A stretch of DNA of 64,000 nucleotides from Candidatus Yanofskybacteria bacterium (GTDB taxonomy: Bacteria > Patescibacteriota > Minisyncoccia > JACQLN01), in contig CALRHC010000001.1 in the NCBI GenBank assembly GCA_943359335.1, positions 22,466 through 86,465 of the forward strand. The letters run 5' to 3'. Both the position numbers and the translations under genes were made by a program. Shown here in pieces: positions 20,759 to 41,112 of this stretch; the first letter of the stretch is position 1; each line of letters opens with the position of its first letter. The notes under the pieces were generated by a model, which saw only the letters and a list, made by a program, of their open reading frames with translations, had not been told where the DNA came from and ran no database searches.

Positions 20759-20834
20759 CTTCAAAAGCTTGTTAGCTTCTTTAGCTTGGTTAGGAAAATC
20801 TAAAAGCTAATGCAGCTAATGAAGCTAAATTTTA
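20759..20834 (+). repeat. intergenic palindromic repeat (AGCTTGTTAGCTTCTTTAGCTT ... AAGCTAATGCAGCTAATGAAGCTAAATTTTA|ATG)
   Basis: Family member ending at the holB ATG. Confidence 0.6.
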
Positions 20835-21581: not shown

Positions 21582-21624
21582 TTTAGGATTTAAAAAGTTT
21601 TAAGTTATAGGTTACAAGATTTTT

Positions 21625-22761: not shown

Positions 22762-22827
22762 TAGAAATTTATCGAAGTTCCATGGTTTATACTAAAAACA
22801 TTTTCATGCTATGCTAATTTTATTAGT

Positions 22828-23358
22828 ATGGAGACACAAGAATTTAAAATTAAACTAAAAGAAGTCGCTACATTTTTGGCGAACGAACTATCAAAAGTGC
22901 GCAGTAACCGTGCTTCACCAGCTTTAGTGGAAGATATATCGGTAGATTATTTTGGCAATAAGACTCCAATAAAGGGTATTGCTAGCATAAGTTCATTAGA
23001 CGCTAGAACCTTGGTTATAGAACCTTGGGATAAAAGTGCCTTGGAACCAATTGCAAAGGCTATTGCCAATGCTAGTATTGGCGCGCAACCTATTGTAGAT
23101 AGCAAAAGCGTTAGATTAAGCTTGCCACAATTAACTCAAGAGCGTAGGCAAGAACTTATAAAATTGGTTTCTCAAAAAATGGAAGAAGCAAAAATAAGAG
23201 CTCGCAGATTGCGTGATGATGCCGTAAAAAGCGCCCAGCAAGAAAAATCCGAAGATATTAAGTTTAGAAAGAAAGACGAAATCGAAAAGGCGATGAAAGA
23301 AAATAATCAGGCTTTGGAAGATTTAAAAAGTAAAAAAGAGAAAGAGTTAATGAACTAG
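22828..23358 (+). CDS. frr: ribosome recycling factor
   Basis: LSKVRSNRASPALVEDISVDYFGNKTPIKGIASIS...LPQLTQERRQELIK. Confidence 0.9.
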   Translation: METQEFKIKLKEVATFLANELSKVRSNRASPALVEDISVDYFGNKTPIKGIASISSLDARTLVIEPWDKSALEPIAKAIANASIGAQPIVDSKSVRLSLPQLTQERRQELIKLVSQKMEEAKIRARRLRDDAVKSAQQEKSEDIKFRKKDEIEKAMKENNQALEDLKSKKEKELMN

Positions 23359-23429
23359 CTTTCAGCTTCATTAGCTTTTAGGAAACTACCTATAAGCTAA
23401 CGAAGCTAACGAAGCTAACGAAGCTAATC
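23359..23429 (+). repeat. intergenic palindromic repeat (AGCTTTCAGCTTCATTAGCTTTT ... (GCTAACGAA)x3 GCTAATC|ATG)
   Basis: Left arm complementary to the right arm; right arm is a 9-bp tandem repeat; ends at the rseP ATG. Confidence 0.65.
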
Positions 23430-24509
23430 ATGACAGTTTTAATATTTTTTATTGTATTATCTGTTCTAGTTCTGGCTCATGAATATGGCCATTACATAAC
23501 TGCTAAGCGCGCCGGCGCTAAGGTGGAGGAATTTGGTTTTGGTTTTCCGCCTAAAATTTTCTCTATAAAAAGGGGCGATACTGTTTTTTCTTTTAATTTA
23601 ATTCCCTTTGGCGGTTTTGTAAAAATATTTGGTGAATCTGGCGAACACAGAAACGAAGTTGGTAGTTTTTCGTCTTTAAAAATATCTAAACGAGCTAAAA
23701 TAGTTTGTGCCGGTGTTTTTATGAACTTGGTTTTAGCCTATGTGCTATTAAGTTTCGGAAATTTAATGGGCAGGCCAATGATTTTAGATGAAACAAATAG
23801 TGCTAAAGCTACTAATATTAAAATTCAAATAACTGCACTTTCCGAAAATTCTCCCGCATCAAGTAATGGTATTAAAGTGGGTGATTCTGTTATGGGTATA
23901 AAGTTAACCGATGGCACATTAAAAACATTTCCCGAAGTTTCCGAATTTAGATCTTTTGTAGAAAGCGAAGCCGGAAAAGAAATAAATTTAGTTTTATTGC
24001 GAGGCAAAGAAAATATAGATATTAAAATTACTCCACGTGTTAACCCGCCAGAAAACGAAGGTGCTTTGGGTGTGGCTCTAGCTAAAACTGGTTTGGTTAA
24101 ATCGCCGTGGTACTTATTTTTATGGAGCGGATTAAAAGATTTAGGCTTTATGGTTTGGATGATCGGATCCGCACTACTTTTATTTTTTAAAACTTTATTT
24201 ATTGAGGGCAGGGTAATGGGTGAAATTACAGGGCCAATAGGCATAGCTTCTTTAACGGGCGAGGCTTACAACATGGGTATAGTTTATTTGTTAAATTTAG
24301 TAGCCATACTTTCTGTTAATTTGGCTATACTAAACATAATGCCTTTTCCGGCGCTTGATGGTGGCAGGTTAGTGTTTTTAATCATAGAAAAAATAAAGGG
24401 CTCGCCTTTAAGCCAAAAATTTGAAAATACAGTAAACGTTGCTGGGTTTATTTTGTTACTTGCACTAATGTTTTTTGTAACTTGGAAAGATATAGTTAAA
24501 TTTTTCTAA
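23430..24509 (+). CDS. rseP: RIP site-2 zinc metalloprotease RseP (M50)
   Basis: HEYGHYITAKRAG (HExxH), PDZ insert, C-terminal LDGG motif (FPALDGGRLVF). Confidence 0.85.
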   Translation: MTVLIFFIVLSVLVLAHEYGHYITAKRAGAKVEEFGFGFPPKIFSIKRGDTVFSFNLIPFGGFVKIFGESGEHRNEVGSFSSLKISKRAKIVCAGVFMNLVLAYVLLSFGNLMGRPMILDETNSAKATNIKIQITALSENSPASSNGIKVGDSVMGIKLTDGTLKTFPEVSEFRSFVESEAGKEINLVLLRGKENIDIKITPRVNPPENEGALGVALAKTGLVKSPWYLFLWSGLKDLGFMVWMIGSALLLFFKTLFIEGRVMGEITGPIGIASLTGEAYNMGIVYLLNLVAILSVNLAILNIMPFPALDGGRLVFLIIEKIKGSPLSQKFENTVNVAGFILLLALMFFVTWKDIVKFF

Positions 24510-24516
24510 TACTTTA

Positions 24517-24604
24517 TCAAAATATCACTCCTCGCAGACGACACGGAGGCCTCTCAATTGTAGAATCGGTCATCTCCGTGATGCTACTCGGATTGATGTT
24601 TTGA
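24517..24604 (+). ncRNA. structured RNA-like element E1 (homolog of the element at 39787..39909), starts 8 nt after the rseP stop; strand inferred
   Basis: 15-nt terminal helix TCAAAATATCACTCC/GGATTGATGTTTTGA; inner helix ACGGAG/CTCCGT; conserved joining strands TCGCAGACGAC and GATGCTACTC identical or near-identical to E2 with compensatory changes in both helices. Confidence 0.5.
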
Positions 24605-24653
24605 TTTTCATGCTATATATAAAAAGCCCCGACAAAGGTCGAGGCTTACTCTT

Positions 24654-25073
24654 TTAACAACACAACTTGGTTTGAGATTTTTTTCTTAATATTATACTTG
24701 TTACTACATCTGAACTTGGAGATTTTGTTTCGTGGGGCATTAGTATTTGGCCCACACATACAGGCATAGTTATATCAATTCCCCCAATTTCTGTATTGTG
24801 TATATGAAGGGCTTTTATTGTAACTTCGCAAATACTCCAGATATTTCCAGTCTTACATAGTTTACAGAAGATCTCCGATTCAGCCGGCCAGTGTTCGGGA
24901 AAAATCTTTATTCTGGCTTCTTTGGTATGGCCATGGATCTTTTTCGGCTTCACATATTCCAGTTCAGCTTTTGCTATGGGCATCCAACCATCCAGTGTGC
25001 CTATAAACAAGTCGTCTAGTCTTACTAAGAGTCTGCAAATTTCTAGTGTCATAGAGCCGATTATATGCCTCAT
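24654..25073 (-). CDS. hypothetical Cys-rich protein (139 aa); weak HGHT-type metal-binding motif
   Basis: KIHGHTKE...HIHNTEIGG; GC slightly above background; no confident family. Confidence 0.35.
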   Translation of the reverse strand: MRHIIGSMTLEICRLLVRLDDLFIGTLDGWMPIAKAELEYVKPKKIHGHTKEARIKIFPEHWPAESEIFCKLCKTGNIWSICEVTIKALHIHNTEIGGIDITMPVCVGQILMPHETKSPSSDVVTSIILRKKSQTKLCC

Positions 25074-25211
25074 AACAATTTTCTCCCCGTTTAGTGTGTT
25101 TGAAAGAACTTTAATAAAATAACACTTAGTTTATTTTTTGTCAAAATAATTGTCAGGTGTCGAATGGAGTGTTAAAATCTATCAATTATTAGAATCTAGA
25201 CTATTTATTTT

Positions 25212-26462
25212 ATGCGTTACTCTCAATCGTTTATAAATACTCGTCGGGACGATCCAAAGGACGAAACAGCCACAAATGCTCGTTTGTTAATTCGTGGTGG
25301 TTTTATAGACAAGCTTATGGCTGGTTCTTACACCTTCCTGCCTTTAGGTTGGCGGGTTTATCAAAAAATAGAACAGATTGTTCGCGAAGAAATGAATGCT
25401 GTTGGTAGTGGCGAAATTTTAATGCCACTGCTTCATCCACGCGATGTTTGGAATGAGACTGGTCGCTGGGCGGATCCAAACGTTAAACAGATAATGTATC
25501 AGTTTAAATCCGTAGATGAAAAAGAATATGGACTTTCGTTTACACACGAAGAAATATTTTTAGATGTTGTTCGCAAAAATTCTTTAAGTTACAAGAATTT
25601 ACCAATAAAGCTTTATCATTTTTCTACCAAGTTTAGAAACGAACCTCGGGCGAAATCTGGTTTATTGCGTGGCCGTGAATTTATAATGAAAGATTTATAT
25701 AGCTTGCACGCTACTCAAGACGATTTAGATAAATTTTATTGGGAAGTTAAAGATGCATACTTACGTGTGTTTGATCGGGTTGGATTAAAAGATGTTAAGG
25801 TGGTTGAAGCTTCGGGTGGAGTTTTTACTTCTGGGCATACACACGAATTTCAGCTAGTAAGCCCAGTAGGTGAAGATAATATTTATTTTTGCGATAAATG
25901 TGATTGGGCACAAAACAAAGAAATTTATACACATAAAATTGGCGAAGCTTGCCCAAAGTGTGGCGGACAAGTTGAAGAAGCAAGCTCCATTGAAGTTGGA
26001 AATATTTTTAGATTTGGTACGGTATATTCCGAAAAAATGGGAATTAATTTTAAAGATTCCGATGGTAAAGATAATCCACCATATTTAGGTAGTTATGGTA
26101 TAGGTATGAGCCGTTTGGTTGGAGTTTTGGCCGAAGTATTTAATGATGAAGCTGGAATGAAGTGGCCAAAAAGTGTGGCTCCATTTTTGATCCACCTTAC
26201 TTTTTTGGGTGGCGCTAAAGATGAAGCCGAAAAATTATATAAATCTTTAGCCCAAAAGAATATGGATGTTTTATGGGATGATCGCGAAGAGTCTGCTGGA
26301 GTAAAGTTGTCGGATGCAGATTTAATTGGTATTCCTTATAGAGTAATTGTTAGCGATAAAACTTTGGCTAAAGATAGTGTAGAAATAAAAGAAAGAGGTA
26401 GTGATAAAGTAGAGATGGTTAAATTGGATGAATTGTCTTCTTGGTTGGAAAGGTTAGAGTAG
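25212..26462 (+). CDS. proS: proline--tRNA ligase, short form without the INS editing domain
   Basis: Class-II motifs (FRNEPRAKSGLLRGREF, GYGIGMSRL), anticodon-binding C-domain; CxxC-x18-CxxC insert CDKCDW...CPKCGG. Confidence 0.8.
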   Translation: MRYSQSFINTRRDDPKDETATNARLLIRGGFIDKLMAGSYTFLPLGWRVYQKIEQIVREEMNAVGSGEILMPLLHPRDVWNETGRWADPNVKQIMYQFKSVDEKEYGLSFTHEEIFLDVVRKNSLSYKNLPIKLYHFSTKFRNEPRAKSGLLRGREFIMKDLYSLHATQDDLDKFYWEVKDAYLRVFDRVGLKDVKVVEASGGVFTSGHTHEFQLVSPVGEDNIYFCDKCDWAQNKEIYTHKIGEACPKCGGQVEEASSIEVGNIFRFGTVYSEKMGINFKDSDGKDNPPYLGSYGIGMSRLVGVLAEVFNDEAGMKWPKSVAPFLIHLTFLGGAKDEAEKLYKSLAQKNMDVLWDDREESAGVKLSDADLIGIPYRVIVSDKTLAKDSVEIKERGSDKVEMVKLDELSSWLERLE

Positions 26463-26468
26463 ATTTTT

Positions 26469-27530
26469 ATGTATTTACTGAATAAATTTTTTGGTCATTT
26501 TGCTAAAGATATAGGTGTTGATCTGGGAACAGTCAACACCCTTATTTATGTTAAGGATAGAGGTATTGTTGTTAACGAACCTTCTTTAGTTGCGGTTAAT
26601 AAAAAAACAGGGCAAGTTTTGGCAATTGGTAGGGAAGCTAAAAAAATGTTGGGGCGAACTCCTAATCATATTATAGCTATTAAGCCTTTGGCTAACGGAG
26701 TAATTTCCGATTTTGAAGTGACAGAACAAATGCTTAAACATTTTTTCCAAAAAGTTCATGGAGAATCTTTTTATATGGTGCCTCGGCCAAGGGTTGTTAT
26801 TGGAATTCCATCGGGTGTAACCGAAGTAGAAAAAAGAGCTGTCGAGGAAGCTGCGCGCAACGCCGGCGCTAGAGAGGTTATGTTAGTAGAAGAACCCGTG
26901 GCTGCGGCATTAGGCGCTAGATTACCTGTACAGGAGGCACTTGGTAATATGATTGTAGATATTGGTGGCGGTACCACCGAAGTTGCTGTTATTTCTTTGG
27001 GTGGCTTAGTGGCTGGAAGAAGTTTAAGGGTAGCGGGAGAAAAATTAAACGAAGATATTATTCAGATGGCTCGGGACGATCATAGCTTGCTTTTGGGGCC
27101 TCGTTCAGCAGAAGAAATTAAAATAGCAGTTGGTAGTGTAGTAGATTTAAGCGAAAAATTGGAAACTGTTATGCGTGGCCGCGATTTAATAACTGGTTTA
27201 CCAAAAGAAGTTATAGTAACCTCAAAAGATGTAAAAAAAGCTATATCAAAATCGGTTAAAACTATTGTAGATATGGTTCGCGAAATTGTTGAAAAAACTC
27301 CGCCGGAACTTTTAGGTGATATTATGAAACGTGGAATTGTTTTGGCCGGTGGTGGTAGCTTGTTACGTGGTATAGATGAATTAATAAATAAAGAAACGGG
27401 AATTGTTGTTAAAGTTGCCGATGATCCCTTAACTGCCGTGGCTCGTGGCACGGGGATAATTTTAGAAGATACAGAAAAATACAAAGAACTTTTGGCTTCG
27501 AGGGATTATGTTACTGCGCCAAAAGATTAA
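26469..27530 (+). CDS. mreB: MreB paralog (copy 2), immediately upstream of mreC
   Basis: IGVDLGTVNTLIYV, IGIPSGVTEVEKRAV, IVDIGGGTTEVAVISLGG. Confidence 0.85.
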   Translation: MYLLNKFFGHFAKDIGVDLGTVNTLIYVKDRGIVVNEPSLVAVNKKTGQVLAIGREAKKMLGRTPNHIIAIKPLANGVISDFEVTEQMLKHFFQKVHGESFYMVPRPRVVIGIPSGVTEVEKRAVEEAARNAGAREVMLVEEPVAAALGARLPVQEALGNMIVDIGGGTTEVAVISLGGLVAGRSLRVAGEKLNEDIIQMARDDHSLLLGPRSAEEIKIAVGSVVDLSEKLETVMRGRDLITGLPKEVIVTSKDVKKAISKSVKTIVDMVREIVEKTPPELLGDIMKRGIVLAGGGSLLRGIDELINKETGIVVKVADDPLTAVARGTGIILEDTEKYKELLASRDYVTAPKD

Positions 27531-27532
27531 TT

Positions 27533-28327
27533 ATGTCTAATTGGCAGAAAATTGCTATAACCCTTTTTACAGCGACTATTTTATTTTTTTTAGATAAAGC
27601 TGGTTTTTTTAATTTTTCTGTAAATTTACTAAATCGTTTTGGAGTGGCTCCAATTACAAGATCGGTTTTTTATTTAGGCAAGGAAAGCAGTTTTTTATTT
27701 AAAAATATTTTTGGTGTAAGAGATTTAATAAAAGAAAATATCTTTTTAAAAAGTGAAAGAGATTTTTTTAGGGGAGAATATTTTAAAATTCTGCAGTTAA
27801 AAGAAGAAAACGATTTTTTGCGTAAAGCTTTAAGTTTGGGCCAAAAAGAATCTAAAAAAATAATTTTTGCAGACACTCTTTCGCTAGACCCATTCCAAGC
27901 TAGTGATTCTTTATTAGTAAATAAAGGTTTTAAAGATGGGGTTGGTGTGGGTGATTCGGTAATTCTTTCTGGAAATATTTTAGTTGGTCGGATAAAGGAA
28001 GTTTTTGCTAAAGAGAGTAGGGTTACCTTAGTAACATCAGCTCAAAATAAAGTTACGGTTGCTTCCGAAGACAGTGGGGTTAAGGGTGTAATAACGGGTT
28101 CTGCTAGTGGCGTGCTTAATTTAGATCTTGTTTTAAAAGAATCGGAATTAATAAGTGGGCAGATCCTCTTAAGTTCTGGGTTGGATGGTTTTTTTAAAGG
28201 TGGTTTTTTAGTAGGAGAGGTTGTTAAGGTTAGTAATAGCGATTCTGATCCTTTTAAAAAAGCTTTAGTGCGACCATTCTTTAATTCTAAGGATTTAAAA
28301 CAAGTTTTCATTATTGTTTCCGAATAG
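27533..28327 (+). CDS. mreC: rod-shape-determining protein MreC
   Basis: N-terminal TM, coiled-coil, two beta domains (GDSVILSGNILVGRIKEV; LLSSGLDGFFKGGFLVGEVVKV). Confidence 0.7.
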   Translation: MSNWQKIAITLFTATILFFLDKAGFFNFSVNLLNRFGVAPITRSVFYLGKESSFLFKNIFGVRDLIKENIFLKSERDFFRGEYFKILQLKEENDFLRKALSLGQKESKKIIFADTLSLDPFQASDSLLVNKGFKDGVGVGDSVILSGNILVGRIKEVFAKESRVTLVTSAQNKVTVASEDSGVKGVITGSASGVLNLDLVLKESELISGQILLSSGLDGFFKGGFLVGEVVKVSNSDSDPFKKALVRPFFNSKDLKQVFIIVSE

Positions 28328-28385
28328 TTGCTTATTTGTATTTTTTCTTGCTAAGATTCTTAAATAATTTAAATACCATTATCAA

Positions 28386-29075
28386 ATGGAACCACAACAA
28401 GAAACCACTCAATCTGTAAAAAGCTCTCTTTCGGTCCCGCTCTCTATTGTAGTAGCCGGCTTATTAATAGCGGGGGCTGTTTGGTTTAGGGGTACAGGAA
28501 ATATAGATACCACAGCTCAAGTTGGTACGAAGCCCGTTAAGGTTGATTTAGGTAACTTGCCTGTTTTAGGAGATGAAAATGCAAAAATAACCATAATAGA
28601 ATTTGCGGATTATCAATGTCCATATTGCGAAGCTTTTTTTACTCAAGTTGAACCAATACTAAGAGAAGAATATGTAAAAAAAGGGCTAGTTAAGGTGCAG
28701 TGGCGAGATTTTGCTTTTTTGGGTCCTGAATCTTTTTGGGCAGCCGAAGCAGCAAGGTGTGCTAACGATCAAGGAAAGTTTTGGCAATATCATGACTTGT
28801 TGTTAAATAGGCAAAAAGGAGAAAATGAAGGTGCTTTTAGTAAAGAAAATTTAAAAACCTTTGCCGGCGAACTTGGTTTAAATACAGCAGATTTTGATTC
28901 TTGTTTAGACACAGGCAAATATGTTCAAACTGTTAAGGATGACACCGATTATGGCCGTTCGGTTGGCGTTACTGGTACGCCAGGAACATTTATAAACGGC
29001 GAACAAGTTGTTGGTGTAGATAGAAATGATCCGTTTACTCAGTTTAAAGTTGTAATAGATAAATATTTAAAATAA
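28386..29075 (+). CDS. DsbA-family thioredoxin-fold thiol:disulfide oxidoreductase (membrane anchored)
   Basis: IIEFADYQCPYCEAFF (CPYC active site), N-terminal TM. Confidence 0.75.
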   Translation: MEPQQETTQSVKSSLSVPLSIVVAGLLIAGAVWFRGTGNIDTTAQVGTKPVKVDLGNLPVLGDENAKITIIEFADYQCPYCEAFFTQVEPILREEYVKKGLVKVQWRDFAFLGPESFWAAEAARCANDQGKFWQYHDLLLNRQKGENEGAFSKENLKTFAGELGLNTADFDSCLDTGKYVQTVKDDTDYGRSVGVTGTPGTFINGEQVVGVDRNDPFTQFKVVIDKYLK

Positions 29076-29079
29076 CTTA

Positions 29080-29550
29080 ATGAATAAAAAAAGAATAATA
29101 ATTTTAATAGTTATTTTAATAATTGCACTAGGTGCTTTTTGGTTTTTAAAATCGCCTTCGGAAAAACCAGGTGAAGCTGTGTCTATCCAACCTAATGAAA
29201 TTATAAAACCGGGCGATCCATTACCGGGATTATATCTTACAAATCCGCCAGTTTCTGGCTGGCATTATGCCGACAAAGCTAATTGGGGAATTTATACAGA
29301 AGAATTACCAGATCAAACGTTAATAGCTAATCTAGAAGATGGTGGTGTTTGGATTTCTTACCACCCAGATGCTCCACCAGAAATGGTTGAAAGTTTAAGC
29401 AAAATAGTTTCCAATTATAAAACCGGTGTAATTTTAACTCCCAGAACCAGTAGTGATAAATTAATTTCTTTGGCGGCTTGGGGCAGGTTAGATAAGTTTG
29501 ATTATTTTGACGAGGCAAGAATTTTAAAGTTTATAAAAGCATATAAATAA
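29080..29550 (+). CDS. hypothetical N-terminally anchored protein (possibly DUF3105-like) co-located with DsbA
   Basis: TM then PPVSGWHYADKANWGIY...GGVWISYHPDAPPE; family assignment tentative. Confidence 0.35.
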   Translation: MNKKRIIILIVILIIALGAFWFLKSPSEKPGEAVSIQPNEIIKPGDPLPGLYLTNPPVSGWHYADKANWGIYTEELPDQTLIANLEDGGVWISYHPDAPPEMVESLSKIVSNYKTGVILTPRTSSDKLISLAAWGRLDKFDYFDEARILKFIKAYK

Positions 29551-29578
29551 GTTTGCTCTTTAAAAAAGGAGGTTTAAA

Positions 29579-30001
29579 GTGCTAATAAAAGTTGATATAG
29601 AAATCAACAACGGTCATGAGGTTGGAACTTTTCTTGGTGAGGTTTTAATAACATTTCCAGAGATGAATATTTTTGGAAGGAGTTTTACTTTTTTTGTTGA
29701 AGAATCTGGAGGTGTTGTTTTTCTTACTATTTATAGAGACGGCGATGTTTACGCTAAAGCATTCTATAACAACAGCAGAAGTCCGACTATTTTACTAGCA
29801 GAGAATAATGGGTTTGGGCAACTTTGGTTGGTTAGGCATATCTGTAACCTTATTAGCGTTGCGGCAATGTTTTTAGAAACTAACACTTTTTCATCCGATT
29901 GTTTTATTTATCAAAATACTCTTAAGACACCTTTAACAGAAATTGACGATCGTATTTGTGGTGTTGTCTCTATGATGTGCCGCCAAACCGTTCCAAAATA
30001 A
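29579..30001 (+). CDS. hypothetical protein (140 aa), GTG start preceded by AAGGAGG
   Basis: Strong SD 7 nt upstream of GTG; no motif. Confidence 0.4.
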   Translation: MLIKVDIEINNGHEVGTFLGEVLITFPEMNIFGRSFTFFVEESGGVVFLTIYRDGDVYAKAFYNNSRSPTILLAENNGFGQLWLVRHICNLISVAAMFLETNTFSSDCFIYQNTLKTPLTEIDDRICGVVSMMCRQTVPK

Positions 30002-30002
30002 A

Positions 30003-30037
30003 AATCCCGCTTAGCGTTTTTGCCTAGCGGGATTTGT
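30003..30037. terminator. bidirectional terminator hairpin AAATCCCGCTTAGCG-TTTTT-GCCTAGCGGGATTT
   Basis: Imperfect 12-bp stem with flanking A/T runs between convergent transcripts. Confidence 0.6.
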
Positions 30038-30041
30038 TTGT

Positions 30042-30158
30042 GGCGACAGAGCTGTGTAGCAGTGACCCGACGTTTCCGTCAACGCCTAAGGTGGGCTGAG
30101 CACTGAACTACAAGAAATTCCTACTTATGGAATTTCTCCTTTCGGCAACTCTGCCGCC
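30042..30158 (-). ncRNA. unassigned structured small RNA (about 117 nt, three stems)
   Basis: On the minus strand: 10-bp closing helix GGCGGCAGAG/CUCUGUCGCC (G·U on minus, A-C mismatch on plus), perfect 9-bp hairpin AGAAAUUCC-AUAAGUA-GGAAUUUCU, third arm UGUAG..CAGUG..GACG-GAAA-CGUC..CACUG..CUACA with a GNRA loop; no ORF; lies 3' of the two tRNAs. Confidence 0.45.
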
Positions 30159-30169
30159 GGTATAATTTT

Positions 30170-30250
30170 TGGTGGGGGCAGCGGGATTTGAACCCACGAC
30201 CTACCGATTGGCAATCGGTAGCTCTTCCTACATATCTGAGCTATGCCCCC
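30170..30250 (-). tRNA. tRNA-Gly (anticodon GCC), CCA encoded, unusually long 13-nt D-loop
   Basis: Hand fold: acceptor GGGGGCA/UGCCCCC, anticodon arm ACCGA-UUGCCAA-UCGGU, T-arm GUGGG-UUCAAAU-CCCGC, 3' ACCA. Confidence 0.7.
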
Positions 30251-30260
30251 ACGCAAAATT

Positions 30261-30336
30261 TGGCTGTGCCCCAGGGAGTCGAACCCCGATAGCCTCCTCG
30301 TTTAGAGGTGGTGTCCTGCCATTGAACGAGGGCACA
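30261..30336 (-). tRNA. tRNA of unresolved identity with non-canonical anticodon arm (19 nt in place of 17)
   Basis: Acceptor UGUGCCC/GGGCACA (U1-A72), D-arm GUUC-AAUGGCA-GGAC, T-arm CGGGG-UUCGACU-CCCUG, encoded GCCA; anticodon region CCACCUCUAAACGAGGAGG folds only as an imperfect stem with a 5-, 7- (CUAAACG) or 9-nt loop. Confidence 0.5.
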
Positions 30337-30412
30337 GCACAGAAAAGATCTGGGTAGTAATTTAGCAATTACCTAAAAAACTGTCAATTCTTCTTTTGTA
30401 AGCTATTTTTCT

Positions 30413-32734
30413 GTGTTATTATTTTCTAGTAATATACTCAACCTAATGCCAGCTGAAAAAGAAAAAGAGGATATTAAAAATCCTAAAAAACCTCAAACAA
30501 AAAAGCTAAAAAAGGAAACTTCTTGGCTTCATTTAGAATCAGGCGTCAAAAGAAGCGTTGCAGGCGTTTTATTGTTAGCTGTGGCTCTGGTAACAACTTT
30601 AGCTTTTTTTGGCTTGTCTGGATCTTTTTCGGAAGCCATCACCAGTGGCGCCGATTATTTGTTTGGCTCCGGCAGTTTCTTTGTGCCCTTAACAATGTTT
30701 TTAATGTCGTTTTTTATTTTAACTTCCGATAAGAAAAAAATATTGGGTTCCACTATAATTGGTGGCAATCTTTTGATTTTAAGTTTTTTAGGAATGATGG
30801 AAGTTTTTTCTAATAACCATGCTGGTGGAAATATTGGATATTATTTTAGTTGGCCGTTTATGCAAATGTTTGGTTTTTGGGGTTCGCTAGTATTTTTTAT
30901 AGCATTTTTCTTTTCAGCCATGTTAATTGTTTTTCGCTTGCCACTTAAAGACCAAATAAAAGAAAAGGTTACGTTTAAGGCAGATGAAAACGGTGAAATG
31001 ATTTCAGAAAAGAAACTAGTTTTAGAAAAGGGTTTGGTAACAAAAATTGCAACATTGGCGAATAAAGCAAAATTACCACAAGTAGCTGTTAAAAAAGCAG
31101 AAGCCCCAAAACCTGCTGGTGATACTGTTACTATAAATTCTCCACAAGGTAACGCGCTTGCAGCAAAAACAGACGAAGCTCCAAAAAAGAAACAAGACAT
31201 GGCCAGCGGGTTTAGTGTTTTACCTTTGTCTGTTAATTACAAATTTCCACCACTCGATTTATTAGAAGACGAAGGTTCGATGCCGGTTACCGGTGACATT
31301 AAGGGTAATGCCATAATTATTCAAAAAACTTTAGAGAATTTTAATATTCCAGTAGAAATGTCGGAGGTTAATATTGGGCCTGCGGTTACACAATTTACCT
31401 TAAAGCCAGCAATGGGAGTTAAGCTTGCCAGTATTTTAGCTTTGCAAAAGGATTTATCTTTGGCTTTGGGTGGGGAGTCTTTAAGAATAGAGGCGCCGAT
31501 TCCAGGGAAGTCTTTGGTGGGTATAGAAATACCAAATCAAAAATCGATGGTTGTGCGTTTAAAGGCTTTGCTTCAAGGCTTTGAGGCATCGGAACATAAA
31601 AACTTTTTAAATATTGGTTTAGGTAAAGATGTTTCGGGTAGGTCAACTTGGTCGGCATTAACAAAAATGCCTCACTTACTTATTGCAGGAGCCACGGGTT
31701 CTGGTAAAAGTGTTGCCATAAATTCTTTAATAGTTAATTTACTGTATCAACATTCTCCAGAAATTTTACGTTTTATAATGGTGGATCCAAAAAGAGTTGA
31801 ATTAACTTTATATAATGGTATTCCTCATTTATTAACACCAGTTATTGTGGAACCTAAAAAAGCTGTATCTGCTTTAAAATGGGCAGTTTCCGAAATGGAA
31901 AGAAGGTATACAGTGCTATCGGAAAAAGGCGTAAGAGATATTGGTAGTTTTAATTCTCAAATAGATGGTAAAAAAGGCGACGATTTAATGCCTTATTTGG
32001 TTATTATAATAGATGAGCTTGCCGATTTAATGTCTACATATGGTAGAGAGATTGAAGCTACTGTTGTTCGTTTGGCTCAAATGGCTCGCGCAGTTGGAAT
32101 CCATTTGGTTTTAGCTACCCAGCGTCCATCGGTAGAAGTTATTACCGGATTAATTAAGGCTAACATTACTACACGCATAGCTTTTGCGGTGGCCTCGCAA
32201 ATAGATTCAAGAACAATTTTAGATTCTGCTGGTGCCGAAAAACTTTTGGGTATGGGCGACATGCTTTTTGTAACTTCCGATTCACCAAAGCCAAAACGTA
32301 TTCAAGGAACTTTCGTTTCGGAAAAAGAAGTTAAAAAAGTTGTTGGGTTTATAAAATCTAATTTACCCGAAGATGCGCCAGATACCAACCCAGACGAAGC
32401 TCTTGGTTTGGAAAAAGCTGTTTCCGATCATAAACCAATATTGGCTGGCGTAGATTTAAGTAGTATGGATTCTAATGGCGAAGATGATGACGAACTTTTG
32501 CCTCAAGCCAAAGAAGCTATTATGCAGGCAGGTAAAGCCTCGGCTTCGCTATTGCAGCGTCGATTACGCGTAGGTTATGCACGCGCTGCCAGATTACTCG
32601 ATATTCTAGAGGCTCAAGGTATGATTGGCCCAGGGGAAGGTGCTAAGCCAAGGGAAGTTTTGGTAAAAGCTGAAACATCTGCAGAAGATCAACAACTAGA
32701 TTCCGAACTTGATAAGTCAAGTGAAACTATTTAA
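30413..32734 (+). CDS. ftsK: DNA translocase FtsK/SpoIIIE
   Basis: N-terminal 4-5 TM, motor domain GATGSGKSVAINSLI, C-terminal gamma winged helix LLQRRLRVGYARAARLLDILEAQGMIGP. Confidence 0.85.
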   Translation: MLLFSSNILNLMPAEKEKEDIKNPKKPQTKKLKKETSWLHLESGVKRSVAGVLLLAVALVTTLAFFGLSGSFSEAITSGADYLFGSGSFFVPLTMFLMSFFILTSDKKKILGSTIIGGNLLILSFLGMMEVFSNNHAGGNIGYYFSWPFMQMFGFWGSLVFFIAFFFSAMLIVFRLPLKDQIKEKVTFKADENGEMISEKKLVLEKGLVTKIATLANKAKLPQVAVKKAEAPKPAGDTVTINSPQGNALAAKTDEAPKKKQDMASGFSVLPLSVNYKFPPLDLLEDEGSMPVTGDIKGNAIIIQKTLENFNIPVEMSEVNIGPAVTQFTLKPAMGVKLASILALQKDLSLALGGESLRIEAPIPGKSLVGIEIPNQKSMVVRLKALLQGFEASEHKNFLNIGLGKDVSGRSTWSALTKMPHLLIAGATGSGKSVAINSLIVNLLYQHSPEILRFIMVDPKRVELTLYNGIPHLLTPVIVEPKKAVSALKWAVSEMERRYTVLSEKGVRDIGSFNSQIDGKKGDDLMPYLVIIIDELADLMSTYGREIEATVVRLAQMARAVGIHLVLATQRPSVEVITGLIKANITTRIAFAVASQIDSRTILDSAGAEKLLGMGDMLFVTSDSPKPKRIQGTFVSEKEVKKVVGFIKSNLPEDAPDTNPDEALGLEKAVSDHKPILAGVDLSSMDSNGEDDDELLPQAKEAIMQAGKASASLLQRRLRVGYARAARLLDILEAQGMIGPGEGAKPREVLVKAETSAEDQQLDSELDKSSETI

Positions 32735-32846
32735 CTAATATCAAGGTTAAACCTTGATATGTTTAAAATCACCCAACGCGGGTGGTTTTTTCTTGCTTAC
32801 AAAATATTGCGGTGTTAATCTAAAGTAAATATTTTTACATACTATC

Positions 32847-33506
32847 GTGCCCATAGCTCAAACTAAAGACAATTTAAAGCTCAATGATTATTTAACAGAA
32901 AGAAGAAAATTTTTAAAGATTTCTTTCGGGGATTTGGTTACAAAAACAGGAATTCCGGCGAAGCATTTAAAAAAAATTGAAAAAGGTGAGTGGTGCGATC
33001 TGCCCTCGGGGGTTTATGTTAAAGGTTTTTTAAAAAAATATGCCGGAGTGGTTGGCTTAGACGAAAACGAATTAGCTTTAAGATATGAAAACGAATGGCA
33101 GCAGATTTGCAAAATTGATTTACCCAAACAAGGTAATAAAACCTTAAATAAAATAAATTTTCTAAAACAATTTTCTTTCAGGTGGGTTGTTTTGGGAGTT
33201 ATCGGAGTTTTTGTGCTATTTTATATCGGTTGGCAGTTTAAAGTTATTTTAGAAAAACCAGATTTAAATTTGAATTATCCTATTGGAAGCGATACTATTG
33301 TGGATAATCCTAAGATGGAGTTTAAAGGAAAAGTTTCGGAAGATTCAGTCTTAACTATAAATAATGAAATAGTCTTGATGACAGAGGATGGATCTTTTAT
33401 TAAGGAAGTGGAATTACTTAATGGAATCAATACATTCGAGATAAAGGCAGTAAGTAGATTTGGTAAAGAAAATAAAATAATTAGACGGGTAACATATAAT
33501 CCATAA
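32847..33506 (+). CDS. rodZ: RodZ-like HTH/TM cytoskeleton protein (GTG start)
   Basis: N-terminal XRE-type HTH with YVKGFLKKYAGVVGLDENEL (RodZ signature), single TM, C-terminal beta domain. Confidence 0.5.
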   Translation: MPIAQTKDNLKLNDYLTERRKFLKISFGDLVTKTGIPAKHLKKIEKGEWCDLPSGVYVKGFLKKYAGVVGLDENELALRYENEWQQICKIDLPKQGNKTLNKINFLKQFSFRWVVLGVIGVFVLFYIGWQFKVILEKPDLNLNYPIGSDTIVDNPKMEFKGKVSEDSVLTINNEIVLMTEDGSFIKEVELLNGINTFEIKAVSRFGKENKIIRRVTYNP

Positions 33507-33587
33507 ACACAGCTTCGTTAGTTGTTAGCTTCGTTAGCTTTTAGTAAATTTTGAAAGCTAGTGAAGCTAGAAGCTAAAAGCTAAATA
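33507..33587 (+). repeat. intergenic palindromic repeat (CAGCTTCGTTAGTTGTTAGCTTCGTTAGC ... GCTAGTGAAGCTAGAAGCTAAAAGCTAAATATTG|ATG)
   Basis: Family member ending at the recA ATG (33591). Confidence 0.6.
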
Positions 33588-33590
33588 TTG

Positions 33591-34634
33591 ATGGCTAAAA
33601 AAAATATAGTTCCAGAAGAAAAATTTCCTGTAAAATCAAATAGTAAGGGTTTACAAGAAACCGTAAAAGAAATCAGAGAACGTTTTGGAGAAGGTTCCAT
33701 AATGGCTTTGGGCGATGCACCAAAAGTAGATGTTGATGCGATTCCAACAGGATCAATTTCTTTGGATCTGGCTTTGGGTGTGGGTGGAATACCAAAAGGA
33801 AGGGTAGTAGAAATATATGGCCCGGAAAGCTCTGGTAAAACAACTCTAACTTTGCATATTGTAGCCGAAGCACAGCGACGTGGTAGTTTAGCTGCTTTCG
33901 TTGATGCTGAACACGCACTTGATCCAGACTATGCTAAAAAGATTGGTGTTAACATAGATGATCTTTTGGTTTCACAACCAGATAATGGTGAACAAGCATT
34001 AGACATTGTGGAGGCCTTGGTAAAATCTGGTAGGGTCGGTGTTGTGGTTGTAGATTCTGTAGCAGCATTAACTCCTCAAGCCGAAATAGATGGCGAGATG
34101 GGCGATATGCAAATGGGTTTGCAAGCAAGATTAATGTCTAAGGCGCTTCGAAAACTTACAAACATTGCTTCTAAAAGCGGAACAACAGTTATATTTACAA
34201 ACCAAATAAGAATGAAACTTGGTGTTATGTTTGGCAACCCAGAAACTACTCCGGGTGGAAATGCTTTAAAGTTTTTTTCTTCGGTAAGAATGGATATTCG
34301 CCGCATCGCGCAATTAAAAAGCAAAGAAGAAATTGTTGGAAACCGTGTCCGTGTAAAAGTTGTAAAAAATAAAGTAGCCGCGCCTTTTAGGCAAGCAGAG
34401 TTTGATATTATGTATAACCAAGGTATTGCATCGCTCGCGGATATTTTGCAAACAGGTGTGCGCTTGGGTGTGCTAGATAAATCTGGTTCTTGGTATCAAT
34501 ACTCTGGGCAGAAAATAGGGCAGGGCACAGAAGCCACAGTAGCCTATTTAAAAGAAAACGTTAAAACATCTTTACAGATATTAGAAGAAATAAAAAAGAA
34601 ATCTATAGACGCTCAAACAGCTTTAACAGCCTAA
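33591..34634 (+). CDS. recA: recombinase RecA
   Basis: [13 protein letters not shown] Walker A, L1/L2 loops; ATG 33591 preferred over TTG 33588. Confidence 0.9.
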
Positions 34635-34636
34635 AC

Positions 34637-34668
34637 AAAAACCCTCCGACCAATATCGGAGGGTTTTT
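34637..34668 (+). terminator. intrinsic terminator ACCCTCCGA-CCAATA-TCGGAGGGT + TTTTT
   Basis: CTCCGA-family hairpin; sibling at 35617. Confidence 0.7.
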
Positions 34669-34738
34669 GACTATATGGGGTTTTTGTTTTAATATTCAAA
34701 AATTGTTATACAAGGTTCTTTAATAAAAGGAGGTTCGT

Positions 34739-35614
34739 ATGCCTCGTAAACGTCAGGCTGCCGAATTAGTTTTTGATGATGAGTCTGAATTGTTAATTTA
34801 TTTTAATGATATAGAAAATTCAAGAGGTCTCTCAGCAGAGATAGAACAAGTACTTTCAAGGGATATAAAAAATGGAGACGAGGAAGCTCTAAAAAGACTT
34901 GTTTCGAAAAACCTTCGCTTTGTTGTTAGTATTGCTAAAGAATATGTGGGTAATGGTGTATCTCTCCCTGATCTAATTCAAGCCGGTAATATGGGTCTTA
35001 TTGTGGCAGCTAAGAGATTTGATGGAACAAAGGGTTTTAAACTTATTTCATATGCTGTCTGGTGGATAAGGCAAGGAATTCTTCAGACTTTAGCGGAACA
35101 TTCTCGTATAGTTCGTTTGCCAACAAATAAAGTTGGTGAACTGATTAGATTGGGTAAGATAGATAAAAAAATGACTCAAGTCTTGGGACGCGCTCCAACT
35201 ACAAAAGAAATTACTGAGGCATACAAAGAGATTGATAATATTGAAGATCTTAGGATGATATCACAAAAGCCGGTTTCTTTAGACGAAAGGCTTGAAGACG
35301 ACAGTCTGAATACTTTTTTAGATTATTTAACGGATAACAGTCAGTCTGTAGAAGAATCTATAGAAGTTAGCGAGATACGTACTATTATTTCCGATGGTAT
35401 AAAACTCCGTTTGGATGATAGAGAAGCTAGGGTTATAAGGCGTTATTTTGGTTTAGATGGAGCTCCTCCTCAAACCTTAGAACAAATAGCTACAGAGTTG
35501 AAAGATAAAAAAGGAACTAGAAAACTAACAAGAGAAAGAGTTCGTCAAATAAAGGAAAGGGCTTTGCCCAAGTTGCGTGCCTATATTAGAAGTAGAATGG
35601 TTGATGTTCTTTAA
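34739..35614 (+). CDS. RNA polymerase sigma factor, sigma-70 family (alternative; regions 2-4 only), strong SD AAAGGAGG
   Basis: Region 2 LVSKNLRFVVSIAKEYVGNGVSLPDLIQAGNMGL..YAVWWIRQ, region 4.2 TLEQIATELKDKKGTRKLTRERVRQIKERAL. Confidence 0.75.
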   Translation: MPRKRQAAELVFDDESELLIYFNDIENSRGLSAEIEQVLSRDIKNGDEEALKRLVSKNLRFVVSIAKEYVGNGVSLPDLIQAGNMGLIVAAKRFDGTKGFKLISYAVWWIRQGILQTLAEHSRIVRLPTNKVGELIRLGKIDKKMTQVLGRAPTTKEITEAYKEIDNIEDLRMISQKPVSLDERLEDDSLNTFLDYLTDNSQSVEESIEVSEIRTIISDGIKLRLDDREARVIRRYFGLDGAPPQTLEQIATELKDKKGTRKLTRERVRQIKERALPKLRAYIRSRMVDVL

Positions 35615-35616
35615 AC

Positions 35617-35650
35617 AAAAACCCTCCGATATTGTTCGGAGGGTTTTTTA
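35617..35650. terminator. bidirectional terminator ACCCTCCGAT-ATTGT-TCGGAGGGT between convergent sigma gene and rpsR
   Basis: A-run upstream, T-run downstream. Confidence 0.7.
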
Positions 35651-35651
35651 T

Positions 35652-35897
35652 TTATCTTACGTGTTGTGTAAACGGTAGCAAGCCGGCAATGCGGGATCGC
35701 TTTATAGCGTTAGCCACTCGGCGTTGGTGTTTAGAACAATTGCCAGTACGAGTTCTAGAAGCGATTTTATATTGGTGGGTTAAAAAGCTTTTAAGCCCAG
35801 CTGCTTCTTTAAAATCGACAACGTCAATATCGTTCGTGCAAAAATAGCACTGCTTTTTTTCTACCTTTGCTTTTTTATGTGTTGGTTTATATGCCAT
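35652..35897 (-). CDS. rpsR: 30S ribosomal protein S18
   Basis: CYFC..IDVVDFK....LK.F.....KI..RTRTGNCSKHQRRVANAIKRSRIAGLLPF. Confidence 0.85.
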   Translation of the reverse strand: MAYKPTHKKAKVEKKQCYFCTNDIDVVDFKEAAGLKSFLTHQYKIASRTRTGNCSKHQRRVANAIKRSRIAGLLPFTQHVR

Positions 35898-35929
35898 GTT
35901 TTTCTATGAATTTCTTAGTATAGACAATA

Positions 35930-36412
35930 TTAGAAGGGAATGTCCGAAATGTCAACTTCCTCGGCATCTTGTTCTATTATTGGTATGTTTTCTTCTTTTT
36001 GATTTTGACTTCTTTCTTGGGGTTTATTTGCTACTGGAGTATTTGGTCTGCTAGATGTAAAACTTGCTCCGCTTGTCTCACCAGCTGTTCTGGGTCCTAA
36101 CTGTATAGCTTCGGCGACAACTTCGGTTCTGTATTTTTTTGTGCCATCGGCTGCGTCCCAGCTTCGGTTTTGAATTCTACCTTCTACTAAAACCATTTTG
36201 CCCTTGTTTAAATATTTGGCACAGGTTTCAGCCATTCTGCCAAAAACAACAACATTATGAAACTGAGTATCTTGTTGTTTTTGTCCGCTTTTGTCGTTCC
36301 ATACTCTGTTGGTAGCAACTGCAAAGCTTGCGACAGTTCCGCCTGATGGTAGCGAACGCACTTCTGGGTCTCGGGTTAAATTACCAAGAACAAATATTTT
36401 GTTAAGATTCAT
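35930..36412 (-). CDS. ssb: single-stranded DNA-binding protein
   Basis: OB fold NKIFVLGNLTRDPEVR...FHNVVVFGRMAE..YL.KG..V.VEGR; acidic tail ending DISDIPF. Confidence 0.9.
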   Translation of the reverse strand: MNLNKIFVLGNLTRDPEVRSLPSGGTVASFAVATNRVWNDKSGQKQQDTQFHNVVVFGRMAETCAKYLNKGKMVLVEGRIQNRSWDAADGTKKYRTEVVAEAIQLGPRTAGETSGASFTSSRPNTPVANKPQERSQNQKEENIPIIEQDAEEVDISDIPF

Positions 36413-36497
36413 TAATTAGCTTTTAGCTTTTAGCTTTTAGCTTTTAGCTTTTTAGAAAATTCCTAACAAGCTAATGAAGCTAATGAAGCTAGTTTTA
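36413..36497 (-). repeat. intergenic palindromic repeat (minus-strand reading: TAGCTTCATTAGCTTCATTAGC ... (AGCTAAA)x5 AGCTAA|ATG of ssb)
   Basis: Five 7-bp tandem AGCTTTT units on plus; same family and same placement immediately 5' of a start codon. Confidence 0.65.
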
Positions 36498-36959
36498 CTA
36501 CTTAAGTAATTCTTCTAATTTTTTATCAACTTCTTCTGTATTCATTTCTACAACTTCTGGTTTTTGTTCAACTACAGGAGCGGTCTCGAAAACAGGAGCA
36601 GGTTTTCTTTCTGTTCTATATTGGCGAGGTTCAAATACAGGTAACGATTTTGTCTTCTTTAACATTTTTTCTGTCTTGGCAATAAGCATATAGCGCAAAA
36701 CATTTTCGCCGTGGCGTAATTGAGTTTCAACTTCTTTAGGAAAGATAGCTTCTTCTCCACCAGAAAGTTCTAAATCTACAGTGTTACCCTGCATAGAATG
36801 TTTAATAGGGTATGGTAAATATTCTCCTAATTTTATTTTAGAGTATGTGATCCCAAAACCACTTTTTGCTAAAGTATCGGTTGTTTCGGAAACAAATTTA
36901 TTAACGCCTTCTTCGTTTAAAGTTGGCTTTAAAACAATATATAGTTCGTACAATCTCAT
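36498..36959 (-). CDS. rpsF: 30S ribosomal protein S6
   Basis: MRLYELYIVLKPTLNEE...; start moved to the internal Met (36959) because S6 begins MR.YE..; rpsF-ssb-rpsR order conserved. Confidence 0.85.
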   Translation of the reverse strand: MRLYELYIVLKPTLNEEGVNKFVSETTDTLAKSGFGITYSKIKLGEYLPYPIKHSMQGNTVDLELSGGEEAIFPKEVETQLRHGENVLRYMLIAKTEKMLKKTKSLPVFEPRQYRTERKPAPVFETAPVVEQKPEVVEMNTEEVDKKLEELLK

Positions 36960-37124
36960 AGACCCGAGTTTATCAGGTTTTACTTGCCAAAACAAGAGGT
37001 TTAGGTTGACTATTGACAATACCTTTAATATAGACTATACTATAACCATAGTTCATTTTTTATAAAATAGGCGGCGACGGCCTATGACGGTCGCTATTTA
37101 AATGTTTTTCAATGGGAGGTTCCT

Positions 37125-37946: not shown

Positions 37947-37970
37947 TAGCTACAAGTAAGCAGTACCTTA

Positions 37971-38000
37971 AGAGGTTCCTAAACAGGAACCTCTTTTTTA
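37971..38000 (+). terminator. intrinsic terminator AGAGGTTCCT-AAAC-AGGAACCTCT + TTTTTTA
   Basis: Perfect 10-bp stem and T-run 25 nt after the stop. Confidence 0.8.
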
Positions 38001-38033
38001 TTTTTGCTTACTGATACATAATGCAAATATAAT

Positions 38034-39785: not shown

Positions 39786-39786
39786 A

Positions 39787-39909
39787 ATAAAATATCGTTC
39801 TTCGTAGACGATATGGAGCCTCTTTATTGTATCAAAAGTCTTCCTGCCTACGGCAGGTAAACTCCATACCTGCCCGCCTCTGGCGGGATGCTACTCAGAA
39901 CGATATTTT
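39787..39909 (+). ncRNA. structured RNA-like element E2 in the dnaG-rpoD spacer, homolog of E1 (24517..24604); strand inferred
   Basis: Perfect 13-bp terminal helix AAAATATCGTTCT/AGAACGATATTTT; inner helix ATGGAG/CTCCAT; extra hairpins CCTGCC-TAC-GGCAGG and CCCGCC-TCT-GGCGGG; joining strands TCGTAGACGAT and GATGCTACTC; begins 2 nt after the dnaG stop. Confidence 0.5.
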
Positions 39910-39924
39910 CTCGTAAATTTTTCT

Positions 39925-41103: not shown

Positions 41104-41112
41104 TTTTGTATA

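Follow-up and report, generated by a model that had tools for sequence, protein, structure and literature searches.

A candidate 117-nt structured RNA gene closing a probable tRNA operon in a groundwater Patescibacteria chromosome

The genomes of Patescibacteria, or candidate phyla radiation (CPR), are tiny and hold little intergenic DNA, and odd rRNAs, tRNA introns and RNase P insertions are already known from them; of their non-coding RNAs, to our knowledge, almost nothing is known. The known tRNA 3' external transcribed spacer (3'ETS) RNAs are short and largely unstructured, include the terminator and act as base-pairing sponges. The tRNA regions of T-even phages are subject to whole-gene swaps between close relatives. 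In phage T4, the transcript of the tRNA cluster is also the precursor of the species I and II RNAs, and termination takes place after the species I gene (PMC2330249). Because a tRNA-cluster transcript there also yields species I and II RNAs, we invoke this arrangement as a precedent for a locus on contig CALRHC010000001.1, analyzed here as a stretch of 64,000 nt (hereafter the window; all coordinates follow window numbering unless a contig label such as L001 precedes them). The window belongs to the chromosome, of about 36% G+C, of an uncultured member of the Patescibacteria from groundwater, and its minus strand encodes a 117-nt structured RNA at 30042..30158, behind two tRNA genes. We put forward the reading, to which we assign an even chance of being right, that this RNA is a genuine, separately folding small RNA gene, constituting the last cistron of an aberrant tRNA/tRNA-Gly/RNA operon.

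The RNA and its structural parts are the following, with the basis for each given in brackets.

30042..30158, minus strand: the 117-nt structured RNA as a whole (fold statistics, pair probabilities, model scores)
30146..30158, minus strand: 5' strand of the terminal helix P1, RNA nt 1-13 (pair probabilities 0.98-1.00)
30042..30054, minus strand: 3' strand of P1, RNA nt 105-117 (sequence reading and pair probabilities)
30138..30145, minus strand: mini-hairpin CC-GAAA-GG of 2 bp, RNA nt 14-21 (pair probability about 0.9)
30113..30137, minus strand: P2, a perfect 9-bp hairpin with the 7-nt loop AUAAGUA, RNA nt 22-46 (pair probabilities 0.9-1.0)
30055..30112, minus strand: P3, a 58-nt branched arm, RNA nt 47-104 (RNAfold and pair probabilities)

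The 117-nt RNA is structured beyond chance. Read on the minus strand (30158..30042), its sequence, GGCGGCAGAGUUGCCGAAAGGAGAAAUUCCAUAAGUAGGAAUUUCUUGUAGUUCAGUGCUCAGCCCACCUUAGGCGUUGACGGAAACGUCGGGUCACUGCUACACAGCUCUGUCGCC, yields one dominant RNAfold structure with a minimum free energy (MFE) of -53.6 kcal/mol, in which centroid and MFE coincide; dinucleotide shuffles average -31.4 kcal/mol (z = -6.8), and 0/200 are equally stable. The plus strand of the same interval reaches -41.4 kcal/mol (z = -3.3), with three G.U pairs favouring the transcribed strand by 12 kcal/mol. Among 680 intergenic windows of 117 nt, which represent all 6.4 kb of intergenic DNA in the 64-kb window on both strands, the RNA ranks lowest in energy and second in z-score. 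A covariance model derived from the two distinct RNA sequences available, those of the window and of a second strain on contig L083 (model R1), scores 143 bits at 30042..30158 on the minus strand, as against 26 bits for the opposite strand. No open reading frame (ORF) of at least 30 aa runs across the interval.

In the predicted fold, the core of P1 pairs GGCGGCAGAG with CUCUGUCGCC, G5.U113 included, and RNAfold lengthens this helix to 13 bp by adding U11.G107, U12-A106 and G13-C105. A CCA at the 3' edge of the RNA, in the context GUCG-CCA, is made up of the last two C of the P1 3' strand and A30041, and its CC is base-paired with G1 and G2. The mini-hairpin lies between P1 and P2, the latter formed by AGAAAUUCC / GGAAUUUCU; on inspection of the letters, its AAGG (nt 18-21) could pair alternatively with CCUU (nt 68-71). 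P3 proceeds from a 5-bp base through a UU bulge and a 5+3-bp middle helix, and then splits into two hairpins, one of 3 bp with the loop CACCUUA and the other GACG-GAAA-CGUC. Pair probabilities are 0.94-0.99 in the base of P3 and 0.5-0.73 in its apical third, for which an alternative fold lies only 0.4 kcal/mol above the MFE. Taken as a whole, the RNA is predicted to form a four-way junction with zero unpaired junction nucleotides, and two coaxial stacks are likely in the modelled fold, with P1 stacked on P3 and the mini-hairpin on P2. A preliminary description of the locus, made from the sequence alone, had proposed a three-stem RNA on the minus strand, devoid of any ORF, in which a 10-bp pairing of the ends with a G.U encloses a perfect 9-bp hairpin and a longer imperfect arm capped by a GAAA tetraloop. 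The strand, the lack of a reading frame and each of these stems reappear in our analysis; the count of three stems does not stand, since the added CC-GAAA-GG hairpin turns the fold into a four-way junction.

The signals expected of a transcription unit surround the RNA on the same strand.

30359..30387, minus strand: sigma-70-type promoter TTGACA-17-TAAATT with a TG extension (10/12 matches, near-consensus)
30261..30336, minus strand: first cistron, an aberrant tRNA (ARAGORN 'Phe AAA'; only 33.5 bits with the Rfam tRNA model)
30170..30250, minus strand: second cistron, a tRNA-Gly(GCC) whose CCA is encoded and whose D loop measures 13 nt (62.6 bits with the Rfam tRNA model)
30159..30169, minus strand: 11-nt A/U-rich spacer AAAAUUAUACC, from the tRNA CCA end to the RNA (sequence reading)
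about 29995..30035, minus strand: intrinsic terminator AAAUCCCGCU...AGCGGGAUUU with the U-tract UUUUUAUUUU (sequence reading)

Read along the minus strand, the order is thus promoter, aberrant tRNA, 10-nt spacer, tRNA-Gly(GCC), 11-nt spacer, 117-nt RNA, 6 nt and terminator. The promoter is conserved in contig L002 of a sister species, where it precedes the sister operon. The first cistron is canonical in its acceptor, D and T arms, has G73 and encodes its CCA, but its anticodon arm is over-long at 19 nt. The terminator is bidirectional, overlapping the stop codon (29999..30001) of a convergent ORF at 29579..30001, and a 46-nt stretch here is 89% identical in a second sister species (L001); a simple terminator scanner missed the hairpin, whose loop exceeds 8 nt. 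Co-transcription of the tRNAs and the 117-nt RNA as a single stable-RNA operon, which the preliminary description had suggested from a promoter near 30340..30400, appears very plausible on this arrangement of signals and spacers. Encoded between the promoter and the terminator of a tRNA unit, the 117-nt RNA would by its location go with the tRNA-operon passenger RNAs of the phage T4 species I/II type, which are grouped by function and not by homology.

From this arrangement we infer the following course for transcription, processing, stability and action in trans. A single precursor transcript would start at the promoter (30387..30359) and stop at the hairpin and U-tract (~30035..29995). RNase P would cut at the tRNA 5' ends, and endo-/exonucleases would act in the 3' tail and in the A/U-rich 11-nt spacer, a likely nuclease entry site, freeing the 117-mer as a by-product of the tRNA-processing nucleases. 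With both ends shielded by the 13-bp terminal helix, the freed RNA would be expected to accumulate as a stable species, and its most likely role is to act in trans as a protein- or RNA-binding scaffold. We favour a real RNA gene over an accident because promoter and terminator, short A/U-rich spacers, a strand-specific stable fold and retention of the RNA despite replacement of the tRNA before it are found together. Since intergenic DNA is scarce in tiny CPR genomes, a promoter-driven structured RNA of 117 nt is moreover unlikely to be idle.

The retention of the RNA can be followed in a comparison of strains. The 117-nt RNA is known from one species, in three identical contigs (the window, L081 and L082) and in the variant strain L083; L081, L082 and L083 come from assemblies of Hainich groundwater (wells H41 and H52), L083 representing another sample. 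The L083 RNA is 115/117 identical to that of the window, and one of its two substitutions, G5A, puts an A-U pair in place of G5.U113 in P1. The tRNA preceding it is a Thr GGU tRNA only 46/76 identical to the tRNA-Gly of the window, and the tRNA before that is also different. Downstream lies the convergent ORF, and the differences between window and L083 are distributed along the locus as listed here.

29579..30001, plus strand: convergent orphan ORF of 140 aa, which shares with the RNA a block that is near-identical between strains
29475..29551: final 77 nt of the DUF3105 gene, 13 differences
29552..30035: the orphan ORF together with most of the terminator, no difference
30036: 6-nt linker from RNA to terminator, 1 difference
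30042..30158: the 117-nt RNA, 2 differences
30159..30169: the 11-nt spacer, 2 differences
from 30170: the tRNAs, homology lost

Only 3 differences therefore separate the two strains over a block of ~610 nt (about 29552..30160), at whose left edge lies the 11-nt spacer, with 9/11 positions identical in L083. The ORF shows 100% nucleotide identity between window and L083, while the adjacent DUF3105 gene differs by 6-17% between strains, and a third strain (L091, L092) combines ~6% divergence in DUF3105 with 0 in the ORF. Because the ORF is invariant while DUF3105 diverges in all of these contigs, the pattern indicates that ORF, terminator and RNA form a single block that was recently exchanged or swept, and that the tRNA part of the locus is, to judge from the alignments, swapped independently of it. 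The identity of the ORF in both strains also means that its synonymous divergence offers no yardstick for constraint.

Beyond the species, no further copy was found in the loci and collections searched. With R1 and filters off, no second copy of the RNA was found in the 64-kb window, and in 80 ftsK loci of related CPR genomes (~1 Mb) plus 25 further loci only the window and L083 matched. The loci of relatives L085-L105, which were found through DUF3105 and FtsK N-terminal relatives, are without the 117-nt RNA. Two patterns searched in viral contigs found no 117-nt RNA, a degenerate 28-nt pattern run against Joint Genome Institute (JGI) metagenomes gave only a chance AT-rich match (L084), and a blastn search of the operon against 50,697 phage records and against plasmids matched only in its tRNA-Gly part.

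Known RNA families were considered in turn through the Rfam scan that the preliminary description had suggested. At the gathering score, the only Rfam 15 families recognized in the whole window are tRNA and RNase P RNA, the latter at 55723..56168. At E <= 10, slices of 551 nt and 129 nt around the RNA match no model for signal recognition particle (SRP) RNA, 6S, Y RNA, YrlA, 5S, transfer-messenger RNA (tmRNA), ribozyme or riboswitch, and the sole matches over the 117-nt RNA are microRNA-type hairpin noise of 12-13 bits. The candidates rejected at this threshold include bacterial SRP RNA (RF00169 / RF01854), whose extended hairpin rod is not the four-way junction seen here; Y RNA and YrlA, the T-loop sequence being absent from the 117-nt RNA; 6S RNA, the fold being branched and without a central bubble; 5S rRNA, though the length fits; and the self-cleaving ribozymes (hammerhead, twister, twister-sister, pistol, hatchet and those resembling that of hepatitis delta virus, HDV). 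The TROVE (rsr/Ro60) domain was also sought, by Pfam scans of 40 ORFs at 24..43254 that took in every ORF of at least 120 aa within ~13 kb of the RNA, and none was found among them. A tRNA, intron-containing tRNAs and pseudo-tRNAs included, was rejected as well: the Rfam tRNA model matches both neighbours and not the 117-nt RNA, nor does ARAGORN report a tRNA there when introns are permitted and its thresholds are relaxed to 80%. A riboswitch or cis-regulatory leader finds neither a model match nor a same-strand gene downstream, where only the terminator and the convergent ORF lie. The identity of an unassigned RNA, as first proposed, therefore stands, as do the earlier arguments against a riboswitch and the reported absence of the SRP domain IV signature; the suggestion of an SRP variant or a Y-RNA-like molecule is not supported.

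Inspection of the same site in relatives shows a locus of variable RNA content. In the two sister species, L001 and L002, the flanks are about 85% identical (DNA) to those of the window. The L001 site holds, in order, a Y1-transposase-like ORF, tRNA-His, an 85-nt cloverleaf-like RNA, a tRNA-like gene and the same terminator. The 85-nt RNA (L001 4978..5062, minus strand) directly follows tRNA-His, recurs in L085-L088 and is not called a tRNA; its 7-bp terminal helix encloses three hairpins, namely GGCU-GAAA-GGCC, one of 8 bp capped by a GAGA loop and one of 5 bp whose loop spans 11 nt, and is followed by U-CCA. In the tRNA-like gene (L001 4848..4972, minus strand), the T loop is canonical, the D loop counts 21 nt and the anticodon arm is replaced by a long hairpin. 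The Y1 (IS200-like) transposase-like ORF (L001 5272..5946, plus strand) sits between the promoter of the RNA operon and ftsK, and copies of the hairpin AAAAGGGCGGTCCTTTTT occur on both of its sides. In L002, an orthologue of the aberrant first tRNA and a Gly-type tRNA are followed by an own terminator, with no 117-nt element. The former (L002 260..336, minus strand) carries a compensatory acceptor change of U-A to C-G and a different 20-nt sequence as its anticodon arm, all other features of the tRNA being preserved; the latter (L002 112..248, minus strand) has a ~65-nt hairpin inserted in the anticodon loop.

Among more distant relatives, L094 encodes a 64-nt three-way-junction RNA adjoining a tRNA-Asn(GUU) (about 1884..2008, minus strand) with an insertion of ~50 nt in its D loop. 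L099 presents upstream of ftsK a perfect 114-nt four-way junction (3719..3832, minus strand; 11-bp closing helix, z = -5.7) with no tRNA beside it and no Rfam match, an element of 103 nt in L104 is closed by a 14-bp helix, and in L095-L098 nothing but a 78-nt spacer separates the ORF homologue from ftsK. A descriptor search for an acceptor-like helix, a GAAA hairpin and NCCA in the gathered DNA of relatives gave 21 matches against 4 in shuffled sequence, mostly copies of the L001 element, so that only the L001 cloverleaf rises above background and no broad family is evident. Taken together, the RNA content of the locus behaves as though exchanged between close relatives, the 117-nt RNA being by all appearances accessory at this site. 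Three further observations concern these contigs. The tRNA insertions in L002, L001 and L094 are not intron-like and are far too short for group I introns. L089 contains exactly 100 N (5054..5153) at the RNA-operon site, just before the terminator upstream of ftsK, which is most likely a standard scaffold gap caused by strain heterogeneity, as in L019. Finally, L029 1..288 consists of two tandem units of ~117 nt, each opening with 18 nt that repeat the start of the adjacent tRNA-Ala gene, beyond which the sequence is unrelated, and these units are, as read from the contig, duplicated tRNA 5' fragments.

Several results weigh against a functional RNA gene of this kind, and against its likeness to tRNA in particular. 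The second substitution in L083, G56A, disrupts a G-C pair predicted for the middle of P3, and a covariation signal is absent in a comparison of only two distinct RNA sequences. The RNA occurs in none of ~100 related CPR loci (~1.1 Mb) beyond its own species and is absent from both sister species at the syntenic site, the only part of the sister genomes that was covered; because of these absences, it is not required at this site. The preliminary description had held that lack of conservation of this spacer in relatives would speak against the element, and what is found is divided: the RNA is kept at 115/117 positions in a second strain and missing from sisters and distant relatives. The analogues at the same site (L001, L094 and L099), and likewise the L104 element, have no detectable sequence similarity or R1 similarity to the 117-nt RNA. 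The likeness to tRNA is topological only, T-loop and D-loop motifs being absent; the terminal helix has 13 bp and not 7 bp, the Rfam tRNA model and relaxed ARAGORN are both negative, and the 'CCA' overlaps the last two pairs of P1.

If the 117-nt RNA is a genuine gene, the most attractive specific hypothesis for its action, albeit a speculative one, is that it may be a tRNA mimic. We favour mimicry among specific hypotheses because of the cloverleaf topology, the GUCG-CCA edge, and neighbours and counterparts that are aberrant tRNAs or a CCA-ended cloverleaf. The cloverleaf-like features comprise the four-way junction, a second arm that is short and capped by a GNRA loop, a third arm whose loop of 7 nt has U as its second base, and a fourth arm abutting the 3' strand of the terminal helix. 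An extension of this hypothesis, which we consider rather unlikely, would unite the 117-nt RNA, the 85-nt CCA-ended cloverleaf of L001, the 64-nt RNA of L094 and the aberrant tRNAs, whose anticodon and D arms are altered or expanded, in one unrecognised class of fast-evolving tRNA mimics, forming a swappable cassette upstream of ftsK in this CPR clade. The tRNA machinery would produce and trim these RNAs, which could serve as decoys or substrates for tRNA-binding proteins, such as tRNA-targeting toxins, phage nucleases or non-ribosomal aminoacyl-transfer enzymes, and an arms race would explain both the strain-variable cassettes and the sweeps of single cassettes as near-identical blocks. More generally, a locus with differing tRNAs, hairpin-bearing aberrant tRNAs and unrelated structured RNAs points to rapid, possibly conflict-driven turnover.

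The wider context is that of a core chromosomal region. FtsK, encoded just upstream, is 94% identical to FtsK of two groundwater metagenome-assembled genomes (MAGs), and the neighbours include an aminoacyl-tRNA synthetase, mreB, mreC, a dsbA-like gene, DUF3105, the orphan 140-aa ORF, ftsK, recA and a sigma factor, with further-out neighbours likewise core genes in the Pfam scans. Nearly all protein genes lie on the plus strand, and RNA genes on the minus strand. The orphan ORF is almost unrecognisably divergent between sister species, and a search of 1.84 billion representatives turns up no more than three distant relatives; it belongs to no Pfam family and no PADLOC defence system, and single-sequence AlphaFold gives no confident structure (predicted local distance difference test, pLDDT, 44). 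Other elements were recorded elsewhere in the window. Between dnaG and an rpoD-like sigma gene, a perfect 13-bp closing helix surrounds three hairpins (39786..39924); the element reaches -54.3 kcal/mol when read on the minus strand, which is antisense to the flanking genes, against -45.6 kcal/mol for the plus strand. The RNase P RNA (55723..56168, minus strand) is of class A (145 bits) and carries an insertion of ~75 nt, and the spacer next to it contains a perfect 17-bp hairpin, AUAACAAUACCCAGCUU... (56219..56259). A gene for a 23S rRNA intervening-sequence protein (PF05635; 6904..7266) lies directly upstream of a gene for a TrwB/TraG-like type IV coupling protein (7275..9005).

Other readings of the 117-nt RNA have to be weighed against that of a separate RNA gene. 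Its position between the last tRNA and the terminator would also suit a cis-acting 3' trailer, in which case the fold would belong to an external spacer that keeps out 3'-to-5' exonucleases, aids termination or shields the operon from the convergent ORF, and that is broken down once the tRNAs have been released; the long closing helices at 39786..39924 and in L104 suggest that such structures may be a generic habit. Yet the terminator is complete alone and is conserved in L001 without the 117-nt RNA, the operon of L002 ends in a terminator without any such element, and a 117-nt four-way junction of -53.6 kcal/mol far exceeds the needs of exonuclease protection; 98% identity was, moreover, retained while the upstream tRNA was exchanged, and we therefore deem a trailer somewhat unlikely. 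We find it distinctly unlikely that the element is a relic or cargo of a mobile element, in which the 13-bp inverted repeat and the 9-bp palindrome would act as DNA, resembling the ends of miniature inverted-repeat transposable elements (MITEs) or Y1 IS200-type hairpins, with the fold being incidental. The content of the site does vary between strains, the Y1_Tnp-like ORF of L001 is flanked by repeated hairpins in the same intergenic region, and the assembly of L089 breaks at this site; but the 117-nt RNA bears no similarity to the L001 hairpins, it folds 12 kcal/mol more stably on the transcribed strand owing to three G.U pairs, and it is unmatched in phage, plasmid and viral collections. Its single copy (a full-model search finding no other in the 64-kb window or in ~1.1 Mb of related loci), the lack of a transposase near it in the window and the lack of any visible target duplication at its ends likewise led us to reject the end of a MITE or IS200-type element as a candidate.

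The convergent ORF could instead be the partner of the RNA, which would then work as an antitoxin-like or regulatory RNA, through overlap by leaky termination, or be bound by the ORF protein. Both share a bidirectional terminator, both are lineage-specific, and both lie in the ~610-nt near-identical block while its two flanks differ. This pairing strikes us as improbable to the same degree as a mobile element, given that L095-L098 keep a positional homologue of the ORF without an adjacent RNA operon, that no extended complementarity exists outside the shared terminator, and that the ORF lacks any family, defence-system or confident structural assignment. Highly improbable, finally, is a divergent housekeeping RNA (SRP 4.5S, 6S, Y/YrlA or 5S) missed by Rfam models in an unusual phylum: no family matches the 129-nt slice at E <= 10, the multi-branched junction is not an SRP or 6S rod, the apical arm is without the symmetric-loop sequence of SRP domain IV, and the RNA is absent at the site in sisters with 85% identical flanks, a result confined to the syntenic site, so that a copy elsewhere in those genomes is possible. 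This holds even though the length of 117 nt, the pairing of the ends, the GNRA tetraloop on an arm and the strength of the promoter and terminator would fit such an RNA, and though unusual versions do occur here, as with the RNase P RNA that Rfam finds despite its 75-nt insertion.

Reading the 117-nt RNA as the last cistron of the tRNA operon, we compared it with described systems. SRP RNA (RF00169) has a similar length, paired ends and a GNRA tetraloop on an arm; unlike it, the 117-nt RNA is branched, and its GAAA caps a 4-bp stem without flanking symmetric or asymmetric loops. Pseudo-tRNAs and tRNA-like RNAs (for instance Bacillus cereus tRNA-Other, YrlA and mascRNA) would resemble it in their place among tRNA genes, cloverleaf topology, long terminal helix and possible 3' CCA, and differ from it in that the 117-nt RNA has no T or D loop, a 13-bp helix and a 58-nt branched arm, the tRNA, YrlA and mascRNA models being negative. 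With E. coli 3'ETS-leuZ it shares a position between the last tRNA and the terminator and a proposed release by tRNA processing, although, unlike the known 3'ETS RNAs, it is predicted to form a large autonomous fold upstream of the terminator. The closest analogue is provided by the species I and II RNAs of phage T4, small stable RNAs that are transcribed together with tRNAs and released from a common precursor. The two systems, one residing on a bacterial chromosome and the other in a phage, share no sequence similarity (blastn matches only the tRNA part), and the likeness drawn here is one of gene arrangement, the T4 RNAs having no entry in Rfam; within that arrangement, the T4 species I gene and the 117-nt RNA are each the last unit before the terminator. 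The 117-nt RNA is thus a new orphan among the loosely defined stable small RNAs of tRNA operons, a candidate and not a discovery, which, if expressed, would add an orphan RNA class for Patescibacteria.

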